From NCBI GenBank assembly GCA_000004985.1, contig GG738900.1: a stretch of 64,000 nt of DNA. One strand, written 5' to 3'. This document shows positions 5,466 to 48,235 of the stretch, piece after piece. Each line of letters begins with the position of its first letter. Positions within the stretch are counted from its first letter, which is position 1. The notes under the pieces are model-generated. The model saw only the letters and a list, made by a program, of their open reading frames with translations. It had not been told where the DNA came from and did not search any database. Source of the stretch: Naegleria gruberi. Its lineage: Eukaryota. The translations under genes and the position numbers were made by a program.

Positions 5466-5537
5466 TCCCGTGTAGTCCAATGGCTAGGATACCTGGCTTT
5501 CACCCAGGAGGTCCGGGTTCAATTCCCGGCATGGGAG
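5466..5537 (+). tRNA. tRNA-Glu (anticodon UUC)
   Basis: 72-nt cloverleaf TCCCGTGTAGTCCAATGGCTAGGATACCTGGCTTTCACCCAGGAGGTCCGGGTTCAATTCCCGGCATGGGAG with anticodon loop CTTTCAC. It is followed by a T-run typical of a Pol III terminator. Confidence 0.85.
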
Positions 5538-5580: not shown

Positions 5581-6621
5581 TTAAGGAATTTGGAGAATAA
5601 TTTTTCCAACAGTTCTATTGGATTCACTCATTTTTTGAGCTTGTGAGGCTTGATCCAAACTTAGAATATGAATTGGAATGTCTTTCCATAAACCACTTTC
5701 ACTCAACCACTTTAAGATAACTGCCAATTGATCACCATCCCTTTCAGCATACAAATTTTTGGCTCTTTCACTTCCAAAAACCTTTCCAGAAATTCCTTGA
5801 GGTGTGTGAACAATTGTAACAAATTGTGATTCTTCATCTTGTTTGAGCAATTCAATGGAATAGTATTCTTGATAGGATCCAACAAAATCCAACACTATAT
5901 CAAAGGTACCTTTCAAAGATTCCAATTCATGAGTGAGATATTCCTTTCCCTTAGTGTAATCTAACACTTGATCAGCTCCCAACTTTCTAACAAAGTCTGC
6001 ATTCTTTGCTGATGAAATGGTAACAATCTTTTCAGCATTGAAATAATTCTTGGCAAGTAAAATACCTGACATTCCAACACCACCACTTCCACCAATGATT
6101 AGAACTTGTTTTCCTCTCAAGGAGTCTTTTTGTCCACTCTTACTTGATGGATGTCTGAGGAAACATTGAAAAGCAGTCAAGAAAGTTACTGGACACGAGG
6201 CAGCAACTTGATGACTAATTGATTCTGGATTAAGAGCTGCTTGAGATTCAGAGCAGACAACATATTGACTGTATGTTCCTCTGATGTGTGTCATGTTACA
6301 ACCACAAACTGAATCACCAATCTTGAATTTGGTTACTTTGGAACCAGTGGCAACTACAATTCCACTAACTATTCGAAGGTAAGAATGAAAAATATTAAAC
6401 TTACAATCAACTCCAAGAATCGTTGGATATGAATTAATATAAAACCCATATTGTCTTACTTTACAATCTAATGGATTAACTCCAGCATATTGATTTCTAA
6501 CAAGAATGTCATCTTCATTCAATTGTGGTAAATCAAATTTATGGTCAATTACAATGTCATCAGCACTGACATTGGCAGATTTAATAATTGCAGCAGTTTG
6601 AAAGGTTGGAAGACTTGACAT
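5581..6621 (-). CDS. zinc-type alcohol dehydrogenase-like / quinone oxidoreductase (MDR superfamily)
   Basis: NAD(P)-binding motif LIIGGSGGVGMSGILLAK and an N-terminal GroES-like region. A probable 36-nt in-frame intron (gtaagtttaatatttttcattcttaccttcgaatag) lies at about 6372-6407 on the minus strand; removing it restores the conserved ILGVD-VSGIVVATGSKV motif. Confidence 0.8.
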   Translation of the reverse strand: MSSLPTFQTAAIIKSANVSADDIVIDHKFDLPQLNEDDILVRNQYAGVNPLDCKVRQYGFYINSYPTILGVDCKFNIFHSYLRIVSGIVVATGSKVTKFKIGDSVCGCNMTHIRGTYSQYVVCSESQAALNPESISHQVAASCPVTFLTAFQCFLRHPSSKSGQKDSLRGKQVLIIGGSGGVGMSGILLAKNYFNAEKIVTISSAKNADFVRKLGADQVLDYTKGKEYLTHELESLKGTFDIVLDFVGSYQEYYSIELLKQDEESQFVTIVHTPQGISGKVFGSERAKNLYAERDGDQLAVILKWLSESGLWKDIPIHILSLDQASQAQKMSESNRTVGKIILQIP

Positions 6622-8933: not shown

Positions 8934-9005
8934 TCCCGTGTAGTCCAATGGCTAGGATACCTGGCTTTCACCCAGGAGGTCCGGGTTCAATTCCCGGCAT
9001 GGGAG
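8934..9005 (+). tRNA. tRNA-Glu (UUC), second identical copy
   Basis: Identical 72-nt sequence to the copy at 5466-5537. About 35 nt of upstream flank is also shared. Confidence 0.85.
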
Positions 9006-10187: not shown

Positions 10188-10220
10188 TGTATGATTGTTT
10201 AAAAGTTATTAAGGTAAAAA

Positions 10221-10340
10221 GACTACAGCACCACAGGTTCCCAAGTTGTCTCCAACCTCAGTACTGATGTGGCTCGACGATGCTTACCTTCTCAAATCGG
10301 ACGGGATGAGATGCATTCATCGTGATATGGCCGTAGCCAT
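10221..10340 (-). rRNA. 5S ribosomal RNA gene
   Basis: The minus-strand sequence is (AT)GGCTACGGCCATATCACGATGAATGCATCTCATCCCGTCCGATTTGAGAAGGTAAGCATCGTCGAGCCACATCAGTACTGAGGTTGGAGACAACTTGGGAACCTGTGGTGCTGTAGTC followed by TTTTT. It matches the eukaryotic 5S consensus, including box A, the loop-C region and the ...GGTGCTGTAG 3' end. Confidence 0.9.
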
Positions 10341-10424
10341 TCATTTATTTAAGTTCTGAGTCATAAATCTTTAAGCAACAGTTAGGATTGTAAGGAATAT
10401 ATTTTAATCAAGATTTTGGTTTGT

Positions 10425-10520
10425 TCTTCACTATGAACATGCTTGACTCACAACGTTGATCACAGCTAAGCCATTGTGAAAATAATTGAGTCAAGCATGT
10501 TCATAGTGATCAACGTTGTG
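10425..10520. repeat. compound inverted repeat: cactatgaacatgcttgactca + caacgttgatcac ... tgagtcaagcatgttcatagtg + atcaacgttgtg
   Basis: A perfect 22-bp arm and a 13-14-bp arm each recur as reverse complements about 60 bp away, in A-B...A'-B' order. Confidence 0.6.
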
Positions 10521-10741
10521 CAGGATGTAATAGTTAAAGTTCATACTTTGCTCAAAATGGGAAGTTACTACCCTTAATAAGACCAATTTAAAAGAAAACA
10601 TTCATGTTCAATTTAGGAACTTTTAGAATTTTGACTTATTTTATTATCATCCACAAAGAAACCATTGTGCCAGCTCTTGTTGGTGCTAAATATGCTTGAT
10701 TTGGGTTATGTAAATTTCAAAGTGCAGAACATTTGAAAAAA

Positions 10742-13700
10742 ATGCTGAAAAACAGCATAACAGTAGATTTGAGCGGTAAGGACGGAGAAGATGGTCATCA
10801 AGGCAAGAGGTAAGAGTACATACCTCAATTTTTTTGATGTTAATATGTTGCCGAATTAGTGGACGTAATGGTGAAGTGGGAAAGGTAATGTTTCTAATCT
10901 CCCTTAATCATCATAAAATCACTGTTGTAAAATAGTCAGGGAAAAGTGGACAAATATCTGCCTTAAATAATGGAAATGGAAGTCATGGAGAACCAGGAGG
11001 ACCGTAAGTATATATTGCTGGAGTGAAATTAGCCATGTGTTAATAGAGGTGGAGATGGAGAGAATGGTGGAAAGTAAGTTCTAGCTGTTATTGAGTACTT
11101 GACCTTATTTAATATTCCTTCTCAACAACAGTGGAAAAAAGGGGCAACACGCAACAGCTGGTGGAAATATTTAAGTAAAAATTGAGGGATCCAATCACAA
11201 GTTAATCACTTTGAGTGGAAGTATCAATGATTCTGTGTGTTTGAATGATGGTGCTGGACAAGTTTTGGTGTTTCTGGCGAATGGTGGAAATGGTGGAAAG
11301 TGAGTATCAGTGTAGCTTTGATTTGAAGTGCTTACAATTATAGAGGTGGACGTGGAGGACCAGGTGGTAAGTTGCTGAATAGCAAACACGACTGAGAATG
11401 TAATTCATTCAGGAATGGGGGGAGTCGGCGGAAAAGGAGGAACTGGAGCAAGAGGTGGTAATGGTAGCTCTGGAGGTAATGGTATGAATGGTCAAGATGG
11501 TGGCAATGGAGGAAAGTAAGTATTGAATGATTGAGACAATTTTGAAACTAATAATTATTTCAGTGGTGGCGTGTAAGGAGAAATACAAGTTTAGTTAGTT
11601 GATTGAAATTTAGTGCTGGAAAAGGAGGAAATGGTGGAGAGTAAGTTTTAATAATTGGTTGGAAATTCATATGTGCGTTTAACAAGTGGAGGGGAAGGAT
11701 CCAAGTAGGTTTTTCAATTATTACAACTATTTTAATGTGGAATAGTGGTGGAAATGGTGGAAATGGAGGAAGTATTCTTATTGAAACAAATAATGCTTCC
11801 TTGTTGAAGTTTGTCAAAGCAGAAAGTCAACCAGGTAAAGGAGGAATGGATGGAAAAGGTGGCTCTGCAGGAAGTGCAGGTAAAGGAGGAGAGAAAGGAC
11901 CTGGAGGACCTGGTGGTAGAGGTGGTGCAGGAGGAGCTGCAATGGGAAGAGGAATAATCAATACAAGATCTGGATCCAATGGAAGGAATGGATCAGATGG
12001 AAAATCTGGACAAAAAGGTCAAGAAGGAAGGAAGGGAAATCCAGGACACACTGGACAAGATGGTACACCAGGAAATTTAACCATTAGAGTCTATGATCCT
12101 CTTACTAATCAACTTGTGGAGGAAGGTCATTCAATTTATAATTTGGTGGTAACAACATTCGAATTGTGTGGCTATGAAAATGATGGAATTTTTGAACCAG
12201 ATGAAAATGTCTTTATTACCAACGTTGGTGTTAAGAATCAAGGAGGATTGACATTACCATCAGGTTCAGTTCTCTCATTTCCAAGCACTCAAACATTTAT
12301 TTCAAACGGTGAATGTTATGTTTTGGAGAAGAATTTGGCACCAGGCGAATTCTTTTCAATTCCTTTCCAATTTTATGGTCGAGTTGTTGGAAGGAAACAA
12401 AAACAATTTGGCCCTTTCAAGTCAACAATTAGCATTCAATCAAGTGCTTGTCTGTTAACTTCTCCATTTAGTGAAGGTTTTGTTAAGAAGGAATATCCAG
12501 TTCAGTATCCAATAGTATTGGAAAGTGTGAAAGTTCCTAAAAGTTTGGGAAGAAATGAAAAAGGAACAGTTACAATCACCGTAAAGAATCAATCTCTTAT
12601 CAATTATGGCTCTTCATTGGGTGATGGATACAGAATTAAGTTTTGTTTAACTCTGGATTCAACGTATATCATTCTAACAGAAACAAGCGCAACTAATATA
12701 TTTGAAGAGGAAATTCCCTTCATCCAAGCAGGAATGTCATACTCTAGAACGTTTAACATTGAAACAACTATCAATGCCCAATTCTATGAAACCATTCCAA
12801 TTCAAACAAATTTATTTTTGAGAGGACATCCTATTGAGGAATCATTGAACTCCATTCGTATTCAACCAACATACATTCCAACTAATCTCGATTCTCCAAA
12901 TCCTTTCGATGTGCTCTTCTTCTCAGATAAGCACATTAATAGGCAGGAATTTTCAAATTACATGTCCCTGCTTGGTAGAATAGGATTGAACGTGAATGTA
13001 TGGGATATTGAGAGATACGGTGGACTATCTTATAATAATAAGGGTAAGAGACATACAAAATCATGGATTGATGGTGGTTATGAAGGTAAAATGATAATAA
13101 TGCCTCTTATGGAACAAGGCTCTGAAAAACAAATGGCTGTCTCAGATATTTTCCAACATTTCAGGGGCAAAAATTGGCAAAATGATTCATCAAAACCAAA
13201 CAATGGATCTATCGTTTTTATCGGTAACCCTTCTGATTCATTCAAAAGTCAACTCTTTGGCGAATGCTCAGCCCAACAAATCCCAGAATCTGAACTAAGA
13301 GAAATGTTTCTGCTTTCTGAACCGAATGAAAGCTCAATGCTTAAGAAAGCAACAGAGTTTATTAAATCCCTCAATAAGACACATCCATCAAGGGTTTATA
13401 GAACTGAAAATGTGTTATTCAATCCTCAAAAAGATGGCTCATTATCAAAAACTTTATTAGGATCAGCTGATTATAAGGAATTACCCTTAAGCACTGCTGA
13501 TGCTTTATATTTCATTCCAACAAAGAGTGGAAACTCTTCTGGATTCATGAACGGAGGTATTACACTTCAAATTGAAAGCAAATCAAATATTGGAAAATTG
13601 CTTAACACTATTCTATATTCACTTCCTGTTGAGAAAAAATTGGAATTGTTAAGGAAACCAACCGAATGGCTTTCCAAAGTTCAAATTAAGGATGAAAATG

Positions 13701-13960
13701 GTGATTTACTTAATTATGTAACTTGTATTATCTTTGCTCTAAGCTTTAATCTGTTTTTGGAAATAATTTACAACGATGAAAATGGAAGATTTTCAACGGG
13801 TATTGAAGCAGATTTTGAAGCACATTTTGATGAATATAAGAATCATCCTCAATCCAAACAAATTGTTGAAACTCTATATTTGGTATTAAAGAAACTTGGC
13901 AGTGAATTAAAATGGAGAGGAACATCGGTACCTAGCATTAAGGAAAGGAAAAACCTATGA
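10742..13960 (+). CDS. collagen-like / Gly-rich secreted protein. About 9 mini-exons encode the GGxGG-rich N-terminus, followed by a large 3' exon that begins near 11746.
   Basis: ATG at 10742. Serial short exons at about 10742-10809, 10860-10884, 10936-11003, 11047-11073, 11216-11299, 11344-11366, 11413-11515, 11614-11640, 11687-11704 and 11746-13960 have GTAAGT-type donors and stay in phase. They encode ...GKDGEDGHQGKRSGRNGEVGKSGKSG...GGNGGNGG. The large exon has a true G-X-Y run (GSDGKSGQKGQEGRKGNPGHTGQDGTPG) followed by a ~600-aa globular region. Confidence 0.65.
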
Positions 13961-15060
13961 AACTGTTTACAAAGATTTGAAAAGCATTCTCCTCAAGATT
14001 TCATCGGAACCTGCTGAATTTTTGAAGAAGGAGACCAAGACTCGTATTGGTTCTATTTCAACGGATCACTTCTTATGTCAGTTGGAGAATTTCACTAGAC
14101 CACTATTGGAAAGTTATCATTTGGAAATGGAGAAGGAACTTAGTGTGGATGGAGGAGATCATGGACATTCTCATTGACATCCTCATTGAAAAATATCACT
14201 GGAATGAAGTTGTATTATTACTCAGTTTGGTGAACTGTGCAATAAAAAAACAACTTTTAAATTCATAAAACTTTTATTGTCGTTTAAGTACCTTACTCAA
14301 CCAGATACAATAATAATGCAATTTCAAATGGAGCCAGTGCGACATCTCTAATTTTACTTGGAATTCAAATTATTCTTCAAGATAGCCCTCCACACTTGAA
14401 TAAATATTCTCTCTCACGACAGTATCAGTAACTTCTTCAAATCCTTCAATATTATTTTCCTCATCATCATCGTCACTATATTTACTAGGATTCACTTGTC
14501 CCTCTCCAGCTTTACGAACCAATTTTTGTACTTCGTAGATAATGGCATAAATTCCATCTTCATCATTACTCTTTGGTTATTTATTCTCTTTGGTTAATCT
14601 TTTCATTACATTGCTGATTTGTGTGCTAACTTCATCATCACCTGCATCAGTATACATTCCATACATTTTTTTCTTTTGTGTGGCTGGTATGTTAAAACAA
14701 TGATGAACTTAAACATCCTAAAGGTTTACATTCGGTGAACATAAACAATTCTAGAAAAAACGAAATTTTGTAATGGCATTCTGAGTTCACATTCAATTTT
14801 TATCAGTTTCCATTCAATACAACTTTCCATCTATACCTCTAAATAGACTGGTTAATTGTTTTACTTCTGATGTAACATTTACAATGACACATAATCAAGC
14901 AAATCTTAGAGATAGATATTCGTAGAATTAGTTGTTACTGTGAAAAACAACCAACTTCCCAAACTAATCTTCGGAGTTGTTTTTGGAATTTTGTCAACTC
15001 CTCAACTTCTTTAAAAAGAAGGACATTATGATAATCTTATACAAGAAAAAAACAACAAAG

Positions 15061-18000
15061 ATGAATCACAAAGGTTTTGCATTGCTTCTTGTGTTAACAT
15101 GTCTGTTGTTTATTACCATTCATCCAATAATGACTAGTGAACAAATTATTCGAAACCTTGCCGGTCAAGGAATATGTGATGGTCATTTATCAACAAATGC
15201 ACCAGTCAATCCCAGTGATTGTGCCTTTTTGGATGAAGAAATGTTAATTGCAGATGCCACTAATCATAGAATTCGTAAAGTTTTCACAAATGGAACAATT
15301 GTAACCATAGCTGGAAATGGATTTGCTGGTTACAATGGAGATGGTTTAGATGCAACAAGTGCTCAATTGAACAATCCAGTTGGCATTTATGTTGATACCA
15401 ATAGTAGAGAAGTTTACATTGCTGATTCTAATAATCATCGAATTCGTAAAATATTACAGAATGGAAAAATTACAACAATTGCTGGAACAGGAATTGCTGG
15501 CTACAATGGAGATGACAAAAGTGCAGACAGTGCCCAATTGAACACCCCAAGTGGAATTGTTATTGATCCAAATAATGGAGAAATTTTCATTTCAGATTCT
15601 AAAAATCACAGAATTCGTAAAATTTTACAAAATGGTAAAATTACAACAATTGCTGGAACTGGAGAAGCTGGTTACAATGGAGATGGAATTGAGGCAAAGT
15701 TTGCAAAATTGTATCTACCAAACGGAATTGATTTGTATGAGAAAGAGTTGTTTATTGCTGATCAAAATAATCATAGAATTCGTAAAGTTTCGCTTGATAC
15801 TGGACTAATTTCAACTATTGCTGGAAATGGAAATTCAGGTTACAATGGAGATAACATTCTGGCAACAAACTGTAAATTGAGTTTACCTGCAGGAGTTAGA
15901 TACGATTCGAAAAGAAGAGAAGTTTACATTGCTGATTCCAACAACCAAAGAATTCGTAAAATATTAGAAAGTGGAATAATTGTAACAATTGCTGGAACAG
16001 GAGAAGCTGGATTTGATAATATTCTCAATGCTACCCAATCAAAGGTTAATCATCCTAATAGTGTTACTTTGAACGAATTAGGGGAAGTTTTCATTTCAGA
16101 TTCACAAAATTATCGAGTACGAAAGATTACAACAGAAAGTGGAATAATTACAACAATTGTAGGAAATGGATTTGAAAAGTATTGCACAGATTTAGCTAGT
16201 AACACACCATTGTTTTATCCTCGTGGTATAATTTCGAATGAAAATGGAGAATTTTTCTATGCCGATTCTAGCAACCATTGTATTCGAAAAATTCTGACAA
16301 ATGGTACAATTCTTACAATTGCTGGAACAGGTACTAAGGGTTACAATGGAGATGGAATTGAAGCAACAAGTGCTCAATTAAATACTCCTCACGATGTTGC
16401 ATTAAACTTGGCAACTGGCGAGATTTACATTGCAGATACGGAAAATAATAGAATAAGAAAAATTTTGACAAATGGTACAATTACAACAATTGCAGGAACT
16501 GGAGATTATGGATACAATGGAGATGGAATCATGGCTGTAGATGCATGGTTGAATGAACCGAGTGGTGTTGAAATTGATTCCACTAGCGGTGAAGTTTTCT
16601 TTTCTGATACTGAAAATTTCAGAATTCGAAGAGTTTCGAATAGTGGAATAATTACAACAATTGCAGGAACTGGAAAATCAAAATTTAATGGAGATGGTAT
16701 GGCAACAGACACGAATCTTGCTACTCCAACTGAAATTCAATACGTTCCAAGTACTACTGAAATTTATTTTGCTGATTCTGGAAATAATAGAATTAGAAAA
16801 TTTACTATAAATGGAATGATGACAACTATTGCTGGAACAAGCACAAGTGGATATAATGGTGATAATATGCCTGCAACACGTGCTTGGTTGAATTTTCCAG
16901 TTGGTGTAACATACGATCCAAAAACCAATCAAGTTTATATTGCCGATTTATCTAATCACAGAATTAGAAAAATTCTGACAAATGGTACAATTACAACCAT
17001 TGCTGGAACAGGAAAAGGAGGTTATAATGGTAATAACTTGACAGCCTTATCCACTCAAGTGAATGGACCTCATGGAATGATACTACAACCGAATGGTGAT
17101 GTAATCTTTTCAGATAGCACCAATAATGTCATTAGAATTATCAGATCTGATCAAATTTATTGTAATGGAACATTGTCAAGTGATTTGAATGTTTGTAATG
17201 GTCGTGGTTGGTGCATGGAGAGTGGAAAATGCTCTTGTCAAGACGGATGGATTGGTGATTATTGTTCAGAGCCAACATGTGAAAATGATTGTTATGGACA
17301 TGGAAGATGTGTTTCGAATAATACATGTGAATGTGAATATGGTTGGGATGGAAACTCTCACTGTTCTCAATTTTCATGTGGTGGATTGAATAATTGTAAC
17401 TCGAATGGTTTATGTGTTTCGAATAATACTTGCAGTTGCCAATCAGGATGGGCTGGAACTGATTGTTCTCAATTTACTTGTTCTGGCGCTAGCAATTGTT
17501 CAGATCATGGTTCCTGCATTTCGAATAATACTTGTCATTGCAATTCTGGTTGGAAAGGAAATGCCCAATGTTCCCAATTTACTTGTGAACTCACAAATGA
17601 TTGTTCGAATCATGGCTTGTGTGTTTCGAATAATACTTGTCAATGTAGTTCAGGTTGGAATTTCATTAATTGTTCCATCAAAGAATGTCTCATTTCAATT
17701 GTTTCAGGTTCAAGAGAATTGATATGTGGAAATGATAATTCTTCTGGTCAACTGAAAACATTTAGCAGAATAACGACTCCAGTAATTGAAACAACAAGTT
17801 TCGAATTGAATGAAAATCAACATGTAAATGTTGATATTGGATCAAGAATAATGAATTTGGATCTATCTCAAGACAAGTATTTCATAACCTCTTCATGGAC
17901 CAATTCGAATAATTTATTCTTTACCAATGTTTCCAATTTACTAATTCAAAACTCAGGTTCATCACTTATTCAAGCAGAACTTTCAACAAAAATCAAGTAT

Positions 18001-18789
18001 TCTTTCACGCATCATTCAAATCTTGATATCATGTCATTTAACTATAATTGTTTAAGATTTGACATCCTGTCACATTTGTGGACAAATCAATCCATAACAA
18101 CAAGCATTTCTCCACAAACTAACTCCATTACATGCACAACTATATTCATTTCTTCAGTAGTTGTTCAAAGAACTTTAATCCCTTCACCATCAATCTCACC
18201 AAAACACTCATCAAATCCATTTCCATCAATTTCACATGAAAATTCAATTCCACTCCCAAGCGATGAGACAATTACATTGAATATCCAACCTGGAGAATCA
18301 ATTCTCTATCAAATAACTCTTCCATCCATGAAAAGACTTTCACTTTCGTGTAAAACAATTTCAGGAAGAGATTTAAATTTGTTTATTGGAGAAAATTTCA
18401 AACCGTCTTATGAAATGTACTCAAAAGTTATGAATTCTAATCAGGAAATGGATTTTGAAAATTGGAAGTCGATATACCAGGTGTTTTACATTCGAGTTCA
18501 AGGTTTGAAAGATTCAACAACTCAATTCACTATAAGAGCTTCAATTAGTCAACTGAGACAAGTGAATTCTTCGAGTGGAGCAAGAAATGATAATTACACC
18601 ATTGGATTAATCGTCTCAAGTGTTATTTCACTTCTATTATTAATCATTACCATCCTAACTGTTCTTAGTTGTGTTTTCTATTGGAGAAAGAAACGTAAAC
18701 TTATGGAAGAAACCAGAACGAAACTACTTTCAACTCCTAATTCGCTTCAGTATTCACCTCACCAACCGTATGAAATGGAGGAAGCATAA
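15061..18789 (+). CDS. type I membrane protein with a signal peptide, 12 NHL repeats, about 6 tenascin-type EGF-like repeats, a Ser/Thr-rich stalk, one TM helix and a short cytoplasmic tail
   Basis: The signal peptide begins at MNHKGFALLLVLTCLLFITIHP. Twelve units of the form (A/S)DxxNHRIRKI...TIAGTGxxGYNGDG are followed by repeated CxNxGxCxxNNTCxCxxGWxGxxCSQF(T/S)C. The TM helix is IGLIVSSVISLLLLIITILTVLSCVFYW. The track ORF starts 84 nt upstream at a non-ATG codon. Confidence 0.8.
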   Translation: MNHKGFALLLVLTCLLFITIHPIMTSEQIIRNLAGQGICDGHLSTNAPVNPSDCAFLDEEMLIADATNHRIRKVFTNGTIVTIAGNGFAGYNGDGLDATSAQLNNPVGIYVDTNSREVYIADSNNHRIRKILQNGKITTIAGTGIAGYNGDDKSADSAQLNTPSGIVIDPNNGEIFISDSKNHRIRKILQNGKITTIAGTGEAGYNGDGIEAKFAKLYLPNGIDLYEKELFIADQNNHRIRKVSLDTGLISTIAGNGNSGYNGDNILATNCKLSLPAGVRYDSKRREVYIADSNNQRIRKILESGIIVTIAGTGEAGFDNILNATQSKVNHPNSVTLNELGEVFISDSQNYRVRKITTESGIITTIVGNGFEKYCTDLASNTPLFYPRGIISNENGEFFYADSSNHCIRKILTNGTILTIAGTGTKGYNGDGIEATSAQLNTPHDVALNLATGEIYIADTENNRIRKILTNGTITTIAGTGDYGYNGDGIMAVDAWLNEPSGVEIDSTSGEVFFSDTENFRIRRVSNSGIITTIAGTGKSKFNGDGMATDTNLATPTEIQYVPSTTEIYFADSGNNRIRKFTINGMMTTIAGTSTSGYNGDNMPATRAWLNFPVGVTYDPKTNQVYIADLSNHRIRKILTNGTITTIAGTGKGGYNGNNLTALSTQVNGPHGMILQPNGDVIFSDSTNNVIRIIRSDQIYCNGTLSSDLNVCNGRGWCMESGKCSCQDGWIGDYCSEPTCENDCYGHGRCVSNNTCECEYGWDGNSHCSQFSCGGLNNCNSNGLCVSNNTCSCQSGWAGTDCSQFTCSGASNCSDHGSCISNNTCHCNSGWKGNAQCSQFTCELTNDCSNHGLCVSNNTCQCSSGWNFINCSIKECLISIVSGSRELICGNDNSSGQLKTFSRITTPVIETTSFELNENQHVNVDIGSRIMNLDLSQDKYFITSSWTNSNNLFFTNVSNLLIQNSGSSLIQAELSTKIKYSFTHHSNLDIMSFNYNCLRFDILSHLWTNQSITTSISPQTNSITCTTIFISSVVVQRTLIPSPSISPKHSSNPFPSISHENSIPLPSDETITLNIQPGESILYQITLPSMKRLSLSCKTISGRDLNLFIGENFKPSYEMYSKVMNSNQEMDFENWKSIYQVFYIRVQGLKDSTTQFTIRASISQLRQVNSSSGARNDNYTIGLIVSSVISLLLLIITILTVLSCVFYWRKKRKLMEETRTKLLSTPNSLQYSPHQPYEMEEA

Positions 18790-23780: not shown

Positions 23781-23856
23781 TTTTTTAAATGGCAGTACTC
23801 TATGAATCAACATTGATTTACCTAATAAAAAACCTTTATTTTTGAATTGTCAAAAA

Positions 23857-23976
23857 GACTACAGCACCACAGGTTCCCAAGTTGTCTCCAACCTCAGTAC
23901 TGATGTGGCTCGACGATGCTTAACTTCTCAAATCGGACGGGATGAGGTGCATTCATCGTGATATGGCCGTAGCCAT
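23857..23976 (-). rRNA. 5S ribosomal RNA gene (second copy)
   Basis: It differs at 2 positions from the copy at 10221-10340 and has the same minus orientation and the same T5 terminator. The flanks are unrelated to those of copy 1. Confidence 0.9.
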
Positions 23977-31715: not shown

Positions 31716-33196
31716 ATGATATTAATAGCATTTGCCAACAAATCTTCAGAAAAAAAAATGTCAAATACAGAGAAGCTTCCTTCATCACATCAAAGCATGA
31801 TGAGGAGATTTTCCTCCTCTTCCCTGATGATGATCGTGATGAGTTTAATGATTGTAGTAATGTTACTCCGATCGGAAGTTAATGCCTTCTCCTATAGAAA
31901 TGCTCCACAAGGAATACATATTGCTCTAACAGGAGTAGAAAGCGAAATGTCGGTTATGTTCTTTACCCAACTCAAATCAAAGAATTATCAAATTATTTAT
32001 TCAACTTCTAGTAATTTGGATATATTGGATGTTAAAGTTAAACAAGAGGTTGAACATTACAAGTATATTGTCTATCAAGTACCTGGAATGTATGAAGAAC
32101 TTACAGTTCATGAATTTATTCTTAAAGGCCTTCCACCAGCAACAAAGATTTATTACAGGATTGCAATGAAAAATGATGAAACAACAACAAGTGAAACATT
32201 CTCTTTCATTACTCAAAAATCAAGAAGTGAATTATTGAAGAGTGATGAACCTTTCCAATTTTTGGTTTATGGTGATATGGATATTTTCAATGATGGACAA
32301 AATACTATTGATTCAATTATGAGAAATCACATGAAGGATACTCAATTCATTCTCCATATTGGTGATATTCCTTATGTTTGGAATCATGAACATGAATACA
32401 AGTGGGAAAAGTGGTTTGATATGATTGAACCAATTACTTCTGCAATGCCATACATTGTTTGTAACGGTAATCATGGTAAGTTTTATTTCATGTAATGAAA
32501 ATTTACAATAATTGTAACTAGAAAACGCTTCTAACTTTACCTCTTACAAGACCAGATTCACTAATAGTACTGTTTCAGTAACAACCAAGTCAAATACTCA
32601 ATCAAACTTGTATTATTCATTTGATTATGGTTCAATTCACTTTATTACTATTAGTAGTGAACATGATTATGCTTTGCAAACAAGATGGATGGAGGAAGAT
32701 CTTGCAAAGGTCAATAGAGAAGAAACTCCATTCATTATTTTCTACTCACACAGACCAATGTATAGCAGTAATGAAAACCATGGAAGTTATGACCCAATCA
32801 GAATTGCAGTTGAACCTCTTTTGAGAAAGTATAAGGTTGACTTGGCATTATTTGGTCACGTTCATGCTTATGGTAAGTAGTGATATCATCTTGTGTAATA
32901 ATGTTTACTAATTTTATTAACAACAGAGAGAACTTGTCCAATCTCGGAACAAGGTGTTTGTGACAAGAAGAAGCACAGAAATTACTTTAAGAATGCTGAT
33001 GGTACCATTCACATCCATGTTGGCACAGCAGGTTTTGAACTTAATCAAAAATGGGATCCAAAACCTGAATGGAGTACATACAGAGAAACTAATCATGGTT
33101 ATCTCAGAATTAAAGTTTTTGGCAAACGTGCTCTTTCTGTCGAATTTTTGAGAAATGGTGTTACAACAGCTGACAGTTTTTTGATTGAGAAATAAA
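31716..33196 (+). CDS. purple acid phosphatase (metallophosphoesterase), 3 exons
   Basis: Metal-ligand motifs GDMD, GDIPY and GNHE are present, the last split across intron 1, together with YYSFDYGSIHFITISSE and FGHVHAYE. Approximate exons are 31716-32475, 32522-32872 and 32927-33196. The introns are 46 and 54 nt. The hydrophobic N-terminus looks like a signal peptide. Confidence 0.8.
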
Positions 33197-48146: not shown

Positions 48147-48235
48147 AGGCGACTGAGGGAATTGAACCCTCGACCCTCAGTTATCTCAGCATTACTGCCT
48201 ACAAGACTGATGCACTGCCACTGTGCTAAGCCGCC
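48147..48235 (-). tRNA. intron-containing tRNA. By my cloverleaf reading the anticodon is UGU (Thr); the isotype is uncertain.
   Basis: The minus strand reads GGCGGCTTAGCACAGTGGCAGTGCATCAGTCTTGTA[GGCAGTAATGCTGAGAT]AACTGAGGGTCGAGGGTTCAATTCCCTCAGTCGCCT, followed by TTTTG. The acceptor, D and T arms are good. A ~17-nt intron lies 3' of position 37. The anticodon stem is TCAGT/ACTGA with loop CTTGTAA. Confidence 0.7.

Follow-up and report, generated by a model that had tools for sequence, protein, structure and literature searches.

What kind of gene underlies the train of very short, glycine-coding exons at positions 10742-14177 (plus strand) of a 64,000-nucleotide (nt) stretch of Naegleria gruberi DNA (GenBank assembly GCA_000004985.1, contig GG738900.1; the whole stretch is referred to below as the window)? 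The original prediction, made from the letters alone, described a collagen-like gene with the mini-exon-per-repeat architecture of metazoan collagens. The analysis presented here points to a different identity. The locus is likely to represent a spliceosomal, multi-exon gene of the DUF7932 family that starts with a train of micro-exons, encodes, in its ancestral frame, a protein of about 990 amino acids (aa), and is disabled in the copy as assembled.

The exon train and the DUF7932 family

The large open reading frame (ORF) at 11735-13960 (741 aa) matches the Pfam domain DUF7932 (PF25560) over aa 137-258 with 60.4 bits against a cut-off of 27 (E 3e-16); besides this score above the gathering threshold, the gene product is colinear with the family over the full length, including the N-terminal Gly-rich module. 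A word-indexed search with the ORF retrieved 52 homologs, and an exhaustive HMMER search yielded 608 representatives at E up to 1e-3. With the non-repetitive C-terminal part alone, the word-indexed search returned one match, and the Naegleria relatives emerged only from the exhaustive HMMER search. The named sources of homologs are Naegleria, Vannella, sponges (Amphimedon, Oopsacas), rotifers, a nemertean, Marchantia, a lichen fungus, Planctomycetes, Elusimicrobia and Polyangiaceae, and the identity of the gene product to the known DUF7932 members is only 31-48%. The homologs are 900-1290 aa long and start with a module that is missing in ORF 11735-13960 and consists of a G-X-Y block, a short conserved beta segment, a GGxGGxGG block and an IxIxTxNPxLL motif. 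The spliced mini-exons provide precisely this module, as indicated by the conserved landmarks in a multiple alignment.

The exons were joined by script after reading of 10400-14200. The resulting model includes ten small exons that splice onto the large exon at 11746 in one continuous frame, separated by ten introns that all have GT..AG ends. The donor is gtaagt in five of these introns and gtgagt, gtaaga, gtaatg, gtaagg or gtaggt in one each, and 8 of the 10 are in phase 2. Thus, the central elements of the original prediction are retained, namely, the ATG at 10742, the GTAAGT/GTGAGT-type donors, the AG acceptors and the in-frame chain of small Gly-rich exons leading into the 2.2-kb ORF 11735-13960. 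The proposed numbers, about 9 exons with introns of 40-140 nt, change to 10 upstream exons with introns of 41-58 nt, because the earlier introns of 142 and 98 nt resulted from the skipping of two segments. In addition, the peptide at the junctions reads K-S-G rather than K-R-S-G, and the split codons encode N rather than K.

Exon 1 (10742-10809, 68 nt) begins with the start codon at 10742 and encodes MLKNSITVDLSGKDGEDGHQGK. This N-terminus resembles the starts of two homologs, P0014 (MKTDCVISFNGK) and the N. lovaniensis protein P0057 (MDLRVVIDKSGRKG), in agreement with a start at 10742. Intron 1 (10810-10859, 50 nt, gtaaga..tag, phase 2), exon 2 (10860-10884, 25 nt), intron 2 (10885-10935, 51 nt, gtaatg..tag, phase 0), exon 3 (10936-11003, 68 nt) and intron 3 (11004-11046, 43 nt, gtaagt..tag, phase 2) precede exon 4 (11047-11073, 27 nt), which is symmetric (phase 2-2) and encodes GGDGENGG. 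Intron 4 (11074-11131, 58 nt, gtaagt..cag, phase 2), with a pyrimidine-rich tract before the acceptor, leads into exon 5 (11132-11299, 168 nt), which encodes the conserved beta segment of the family and reads GKKGQHATAGGNI and VKIEGSNHKLITLSGSINDSVCLNDGAGQVLVFLANGGNGG on the two sides of an in-frame stop. Next come intron 5 (11300-11343, 44 nt, gtgagt..tag, phase 2), exon 6 (11344-11366, 23 nt), intron 6 (11367-11412, 46 nt, gtaagt..cag, phase 1) and exon 7 (11413-11515, 103 nt), which consists of GGX repeats and is matched by homologs in tblastn. Intron 7 (11516-11563, 48 nt, gtaagt..cag, phase 2) is followed by the probable micro-exon 8 (11564-11572, 9 nt, TGGTGGCGT), which keeps the frame whether included or skipped, intron 8 (11573-11613, 41 nt, gtaagg..tag, phase 2), the symmetric (phase 2-2) exon 9 (11614-11640, 27 nt), intron 9 (11641-11686, 46 nt, gtaagt..aag, phase 2), the likewise symmetric exon 10 (11687-11704, 18 nt) and intron 10 (11705-11745, 41 nt, gtaggt..tag, phase 2), located 8 codons upstream of S-I-L-I-E-T. 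As assembled, exon 11 spans 11746-13960 (2215 nt), with a TGA at 13958-13960. It encompasses a second Gly-rich block, the G-X-Y run noted in the original prediction (GSDGKSGQKGQEGRKGNPGHTGQDGTPG, 11990-12073) and the DUF7932 domain (12143-12508), together with more beta-sandwich domains and a C-terminal region of alpha/beta and helical structure.

The exons contain 46% G+C (GC; G alone accounts for 36%) compared to 18-35% in the intron cores. In the GGX repeat block, the introns cut the X codon of the Gly-Gly-X triplet (..GGTGGAAA/gtaagt...ag/TGGTGG.., with slashes for exon ends). Exons 4, 5, 8, 9 and 10 are symmetric, and the lengths of four of the ten small exons, 4, 8, 9 and 10, are multiples of 9 nt, so that the GGX register is kept upon gain, loss or skipping of a unit. 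Micro-exon 8 lies in the context ag/TGGTGGCGT/gtaagg, which is exactly how the 9-nt exons look at three related loci described below (L003, L004, L005). It runs into a stop only when read past its donor; 11564-11572 is probably a 9-nt exon.

A family hidden Markov model (HMM) built from 17 homologs, with the window sequence excluded, aligned with aa 4-933 of the spliced conceptual protein as a single domain with 694 bits. Exons 1-10 alone scored 91 bits compared to -51 +/- 8.6 for 200 composition-matched shuffles, exons 1-5 scored 53 bits (shuffles, -17 +/- 4.8), and even exon 5 by itself scored 19 bits (shuffles, -2.6 +/- 2.2), which indicates that the similarity to the family extends beyond glycine composition. 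These values bear directly on the explanation that the mini-exons are chance Gly-like ORF fragments in G-rich repetitive DNA, located next to a single-exon gene that starts from the ATG at 11735. ORF 11735-13960 indeed begins with an ATG, and low-complexity Gly-rich sequence can inflate similarity scores; however, the non-repetitive landmarks of exons 1 and 5 fit the DUF7932 family and outscore the shuffled controls, the homologs of 900-1290 aa carry an equal N-terminal module, sharp changes in GC and canonical splice sites mark the exon-intron boundaries, and the architecture recurs, with shared intron positions, at three other loci. Such an artefact is already contradicted by these observations and is extremely improbable.

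With 10 introns in 536 nt of coding sequence, the intron density of the train reaches 18.7 per kb, which, in line with the original prediction of an unusual gene, makes it a marked outlier in the N. gruberi genome, with its average of 1.7 exons per gene, mean exon of 894 bp, mean intron of 203 bp and 33% GC (PMC8296547). Five of the 13 plus-strand GTAAGT hexamers in the window cluster within kb 11-12 (p about 7e-5). A crude scan of the rest of the 64 kb detected about 12 donor sites that could join long ORFs, many of them weak; the clearest introns are 46-72 nt long, comparable to the 41-58 nt seen here, so that the size of the introns in the train is typical whereas their local density is exceptional.

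The same architecture in relatives and the origin of the train

The search for paralogs with the same exon pattern, suggested by the original prediction, led to three further loci with a micro-exon train: an N. gruberi paralog (L005), an N. lovaniensis gene (L003) and a Naegleria-like contig (L004). In all three, the train includes consecutive phase-2 exons of 9, 18 or 27 nt with the pattern ag/TGGTGGAGA/gtaagt, and the number of units varies among the four Naegleria-type loci examined. Within the window itself, tblastn with the 52 homologs produced matches only at 11115-13930, that is, no paralogs.

The top HMMER match, P0057, is N. lovaniensis KAG2386573.1, and its 1120-aa model fits exactly onto 17 exons in L003. 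Five of these are 9 nt long and others are 5, 18 and 27 nt long, nearly all in phase 2 (..GGTGGAGA/gtaagt..ag/TGGTGG..). The N. lovaniensis annotation was produced with BRAKER1 using RNA-seq hints (PMC6125883). The 5-nt exon of this model (L003 3412-3416), entered in phase 2 and left in phase 1, seems to be a compromise of the gene model. In L005, the small exons are 18, 18, 18, 63, 18, 9, 9, 18 and 18 nt long and the introns 38-52 nt; P0060, the protein from this contig, belongs to the same 90%-identity cluster as the annotated N. gruberi paralog EFC46764.1 (NAEGRDRAFT_79042, P0200). The JGI protein of the paralog uses every small exon of L005, including both 9-nt ones, except for one 18-nt exon. 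This exon, L005 825-842, has good splice sites, and its six residues are missing from EFC46764.1; it could be a cassette exon, a strain difference or an annotation omission. Several L005 introns carry a TTCGAA(A/T)AG motif at or near the 3' end (ending near 824, 951 and 1412), with internal copies near 990 and 1120, which could reflect a branch-point/acceptor context common to these introns or be a remnant of unit duplication. The closest relatives of the window gene, P0063 and P0059 (45-48% identity), are two pieces of a single L004 gene that a prokaryote-style gene caller had divided. In this gene, four 9-nt exons in a row are followed by two of 18 nt. The micro-exon architecture is already implicit in two public gene models, those of the N. 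gruberi paralog and of N. lovaniensis. Scanning of metagenomes for patterns of tandem 9-nt exons gave no matches in a first scan and two GTGAGT-type simple repeats in a second, and no paper mentioning DUF7932 or Naegleria micro-exons was found in the literature.

Several intron positions are shared among these genes. For introns 1 (phase 2) and 2 (phase 0), the window gene and the N. gruberi paralog agree in both alignment column and phase; in N. lovaniensis, the phases of these two introns are the same and the columns are shifted by a few positions (about 5 for intron 1), beside alignment gaps. The last intron, 8 codons before S-[IV]-x-I-[ED]-T, has the same column and phase in the window gene, L005 and L004. 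Outside the Naegleria group, the closest relative, P0001, is encoded by one continuous, intronless ORF, and P0002 has a single 35-nt intron. The L004 and N. lovaniensis genes contain introns in their 3' parts, whereas the window gene has none in its 3' 2.4 kb. One of these, an intron of about 80 nt in L004 (approximately 5996-6081, gtgagt..atag), interrupts the C-terminal alpha/beta domain (DVLLFTG/DKQIV), where the window gene is continuous.

The intron positions shared between paralogs suggest that the train is older than the split of the N. gruberi paralogs and N. lovaniensis. The contrast between the intron-dense 5' end and the intron-free 3' 2.4 kb of the window gene would most likely stem from 3'-biased intron loss in this copy, which fits the retention of introns further 3' in the relatives. 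The 9-nt exons would be workable through intron definition, the introns being short enough for individual recognition. The alternative to an old train is a recent origin, in which exon-plus-intron units were duplicated in tandem or decayed Gly-rich repeats turned into introns. The number of units does vary between loci, two adjacent 9-nt exons in L004 are 93% identical over 30 nt, flanking intron bases included, and in L003, L004 and L005, the mean intron-intron similarity is slightly above that of mononucleotide shuffles (z about 3). At the window locus, however, the similarity of the intron cores to each other and to the Gly-rich exons is at the level of dinucleotide shuffles, the best-scoring pair falls below the shuffle maximum, and the shared intron positions of the paralogs favour the old origin. 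Unit duplication is possible in some lineages and unsupported at the window locus; overall, we consider a recent train improbable. Recent duplication or intronisation at this locus was rejected as a candidate on the basis of intron-intron and intron-exon local alignments that were no better than dinucleotide shuffles (sum p = 0.29). The similarity detected in searches for direct and tandem repeats was limited to the coding GGX repeats and the splice consensus.

Beyond Naegleria, one parallel in gene structure involves micro-exon genes (MEGs), where exons of 36 nt or less are considered to be of the MEG type. In the MEGs of Schistosoma, very short symmetric exons, each a multiple of 3 nt in length, follow one another in runs (bioRxiv 10.1101/2023.06.21.545858). 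Consecutive symmetric exons of this kind are present in the window gene (exons 8-10, with 9, 27 and 18 nt, along with the 27-nt exon 4), and the relatives reach four consecutive 9-nt exons. Short symmetric exon runs and a poor fit for automatic annotation are, then, common to both. The similarity ends there: in MEGs, the introns span 0.1-5 kb, most of the coding sequence consists of micro-exons and the products are small and secreted, whereas in the window gene, the small exons account for 536 of about 2970 coding nt (~18%), the introns are 41-58 nt long, and the product has about 990 aa and no signal peptide. There is no homology between the two.

The glycine-rich domain and the comparison with collagen

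The Gly-rich region raises the question of whether the product is a collagen. The Pfam Collagen family (PF01391) was tried and rejected, with a score of 21.5 bits against a cut-off of 27.2; the NCBIfam model of the Scl collagen-like adhesin scored 24.5 bits against a cut-off of 325. The main runs with Gly at every third position in the spliced protein comprise 9, 8, 17, 12 and 12 triplets, with non-repeat segments between them, and among the 84 triplets in such runs (some overlapping), 26 are Gly-Gly-X and 9 contain Pro, so that the long uninterrupted Pro-rich Gly-X-Y runs of collagens are lacking. The N-terminus, MLKNSITVDLSGKDGEDG, has no hydrophobic stretch that would indicate a secretion signal (by inspection only, without a predictor). 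Given the DUF7932 match, the sub-threshold Collagen score, the GGX-rich, Pro-poor composition and the predicted compact fold, the collagen identity is not supported: the term "collagen-like" is valid for the composition only, and the protein is most likely not a collagen.

An AlphaFold2 model of the ORF has a mean predicted local distance difference test (pLDDT) score of 86.9, and its Gly-rich residues 11-50, with values of roughly 80-95, form no helix or strand. In the model of the full-length relative P0014 (mean pLDDT 88.8), most of the first 250 residues, which are Gly-rich, score 90-97, and only a few short strands occur there. From these models, we infer that the Gly-rich region may fold as a compact bundle of polyproline-II-type strands rather than as a collagen triple helix. 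Glycine-rich polyproline-II bundles occur in the snow-flea antifreeze protein, the Obg N-terminal domain and the phage PGII sandwich. The window product resembles these folds in having Gly at every third position, numerous Gly-Gly-X triplets and a compact structure, predicted with high confidence, that is devoid of helices and sheets in the segments concerned, a likeness to be taken as a lead.

The protein would thus consist of an N-terminal domain with Gly at every third residue and interspersed short conserved beta segments, followed by 2-3 predicted beta-sandwich domains of the Ig/CARDB-like type, an alpha/beta domain and, at the C-terminus, a helical domain. It is probably cytosolic, as judged by the N-terminus and by some of the relatives, in which GST domains or a PH-like region at the N-terminus point to an intracellular protein. 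No functional leads came from PDB sequence profiles, NCBIfam or the gene neighbourhood of a Planctomycetes member, and the only matches in fold searches were generic beta-sandwiches.

At the gene level, too, the comparison with collagens holds only in part. Fibrillar collagen genes are built of 54-bp exons that contain whole Gly-X-Y codons, so that skipping keeps both frame and register (PMC9320522). In common with the metazoan fibrillar collagen genes, the window gene assembles a region with Gly at every third position from many short exons, several of which are multiples of 9 nt and preserve the register. However, the introns of the window gene are mostly in phase 2, inside a codon, whereas the breaks in collagen genes fall between whole Gly-X-Y sets; the exons are 9-168 nt long as opposed to 54/108 nt; and the introns are 41-58 nt long. 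The collagen-type exon rule (54 bp or multiples of 9, phase-0 introns, an intact Gly codon first and a complete Y codon last) does not describe this gene, in which only 4 of the 10 small exons are multiples of 9 nt, and accordingly, the proposed metazoan-collagen mini-exon-per-repeat architecture is not borne out. The protein differs from collagens as well, belonging to an unrelated family, being rich in GGX and scarce in Pro, and having no signal peptide, no recognisable trimerisation domain and a predicted compact fold.

These comparisons, together with the splice sites, bear on the structure originally proposed, an intact collagen-like gene that skips 11132-11215 (within a 142-nt intron) and 11564-11572 and yields an open product of 888 aa with a collagen-style mini-exon per repeat. 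The chain that skips both segments is open from 10742 to 13960, some of the exons are divisible by 9 nt, and the sub-threshold Pfam Collagen match is accompanied by weak profile matches to collagen chains. Against this, the skipped 84 nt code for a segment that is conserved across the DUF7932 family, and the bypass, with intron 11074-11215, requires a GAG acceptor at 11215, which is found in 0 of the 51 introns modelled in the four loci (by a tally of intron ends), and an intron 2.5 times as long as the longest one elsewhere in the gene. The Collagen score below the cut-off, the many GGX triplets, the scarcity of Pro, the missing signal peptide, and the intron phases and exon sizes that depart from the collagen rule all speak against it too, and the 888-aa product is absent from the protein collection by exact look-up. 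An intact collagen-like gene of this structure is therefore very unlikely. The segments 11132-11174 and 11564-11572, which the original prediction assigned to introns and named as decisive against it if exonic, are both most likely exonic, the former as part of a conserved segment and the latter as a typical 9-nt exon.

The state of this copy and the meaning of the train

If 11132-11215 is exonic, the gene carries a stop in its conserved part. This segment reads GKKGQHATAGGNI and VKIEGSNHKLITLSG around the TAA at 11172-11174 (plus strand) and aligns with the 'I-Y-V-K-L-S-G...' segment of the family (ARPIYVKLSGTRPENVQLEGS in P0001, SDIRVLIDG in L004); because it is conserved coding sequence, the TAA in exon 5 is a premature stop. 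In the multiple alignment, P0001 and P0024 have Y at this position, P0057 and the paralog have H, and L004 has R. The second lesion is a one-base insertion in the A5 run at 13949-13953, a +1 shift relative to the family: the homology changes frame between KERK and YETVYKDL. Due to the extra A, the TGA at 13958, which had been taken for the end of the gene, is not the ancestral end. The conserved C-terminal part of about 75 codons continues in the shifted frame at 13950-14177 (K TYETVYKDLKSILLKISSEPAEFLKKETK...GHSH, stop at 14175-14177), where the tail TYETVYKDLKSILLKISSEPAEFLKKETK resembles the C-termini of P0059, P0057, P0200 and P0001 and falls within the HMM alignment that extends to aa 933.

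The absence of a called protein is consistent with two disabling lesions: no protein model for the locus exists in a collection of 15 billion proteins, as determined by exact look-up of the ORF and four spliced variants and by HMMER, in contrast to the N. gruberi paralog, which is annotated. As judged from the sequence, the window copy has most likely been inactivated recently or represents a null allele, with sequencing error as the alternative. In the latter case, the gene would be intact and functional in the organism, and the TAA and the extra A would be errors of the reference assembly or variants of one haplotype. Over about 990 codons, in DNA of 33-40% GC, only the two lesions interrupt the frame, the shifted tail is open for 75 codons and is still similar to the relatives, and one of the two lesions is located in a homopolymer. 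On the other side, the two lesions are independent and lie within 3.4 kb of a Sanger-based assembly, and no gene model was called at this locus although the paralog was annotated. On balance, an intact gene appears unlikely, albeit less so than any of the other alternatives considered here.

Several points weigh against the interpretation of the locus as a disabled DUF7932-family gene with a micro-exon train. All junctions at 10742-14177 were placed from sequence and homology, and for the 9-nt exon 8, inclusion is indistinguishable from skipping. The stop could be bypassed by an acceptor that makes the exon start at 11216, and if the stop and the frameshift were assembly errors, the gene could be intact. 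The models of the relatives are gene predictions, among which the 5-nt exon of N. lovaniensis looks doubtful. As for the protein, the putative polyproline-II fold was deduced from high pLDDT in segments assigned neither helix nor strand, and the probable cytosolic location was derived from inspection of the N-terminus and from domains found in some relatives.

The surroundings of the DUF7932-family gene agree with those expected in N. gruberi. The window has about 33% GC and tightly packed long ORFs, consistent with the published statistics for this genome, and three of these ORFs are identical to the annotated NEG-M proteins EFC39387.1, EFC39322.1 and EFC39317.1, which share a single 312-kb scaffold. 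Candidate short introns of 46 and 54 nt at 32476-32521 and 32873-32926 (plus strand), with gtaagt donors and in phase 1, join long ORFs of a neighbouring gene and serve as nearby examples of the short introns typical of N. gruberi. Downstream of the locus, the ORF at 14977-18789 (plus strand, 1270 aa) has many NHL repeats as well as EGF repeats of the teneurin type, and a transmembrane-like segment at its C-terminus (Pfam NHL, 1.9e-60; TEN_NHL, 1.1e-48; EGF_TEN, 1.2e-22), and its predicted product is a teneurin-like surface protein in a protist. Upstream, one of two dispersed 5S rRNA genes, at 10220-10338 (minus strand), lies about 400 nt from the ATG at 10742, the other one being at 23856-23974 (minus strand; Rfam scores of 98.5 and 105.4 bits, respectively). 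Between the first 5S gene and this ATG, there is a compound inverted repeat at 10423-10520, with 28-nt arms that are 93% complementary (10423-10450/10487-10514) and overlapping perfect 15-nt arms (10449-10463/10506-10520), which may represent a hairpin element or what is left of a small mobile element. The tRNA genes are at 5466-5537 and 8934-9005 (plus strand) and 48147-48235 (minus strand).

With regard to the DUF7932 family, the window product is colinear throughout with N. lovaniensis KAG2386573.1, N. gruberi EFC46764.1, Marchantia MPTK1_7g11680 and the members from Planctomycetes and Terrestrivirus, sharing with them the Gly-rich module, the beta segments, the IxIxTxNPxLL motif, the DUF7932 beta-sandwich and the alpha/beta plus helical C-terminus. 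It differs from its Naegleria relatives in having fewer micro-exons, no 3' introns, and the premature stop and frameshift. The Terrestrivirus sp. protein A0A3G4ZNF8 (BFVD, 1137 aa) is a full-length DUF7932 match to the P0014 model (Foldseek E 8.9e-33). The inclusion of a giant-virus member and the patchy distribution among bacteria and eukaryotes suggest that the family spread by horizontal transfer. The analysis provides a first structural outline of DUF7932, a widespread but unstudied family found in bacteria, scattered eukaryotes and a giant virus, and flags an unannotated locus in the N. gruberi reference that may be a very young pseudogene.

By the evidence of the aligned gene structures, the micro-exon train is conserved across Naegleria paralogs and species, and so the observation is more interesting than a single odd gene. 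Tentatively, and with slightly more doubt than confidence, we propose that Naegleria maintains a conserved train of symmetric 9/18/27-nt exons, each encoding 1-3 Gly-Gly-X units and separated by introns of mostly 40-100 nt, which is independent of the collagen-type exon-per-repeat design and in which the gain, loss or skipping of units serves to adjust the length of a glycine domain of the polyproline-II type. If this proposal is correct, an exon-per-repeat design evolved in a unicellular, intron-poor excavate, in an unrelated protein family. Naegleria would then offer a natural system to study the recognition of 9-nt exons by a minimal spliceosome as well as local intron multiplication, with about 19 introns per kb of coding sequence versus a genome average of 0.7 introns per gene. 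Intron-poor protists are usually thought to retain few, 5'-biased introns; here, about 19 introns per kb, with symmetric exons down to 9 nt, appear in two annotated Naegleria species and a Naegleria-like contig. Micro-exon trains would thus not be restricted to animals, repeat-encoding sequence may keep or attract introns at one fixed codon position, and splicing of short introns appears to be able to handle exons of 9 nt.

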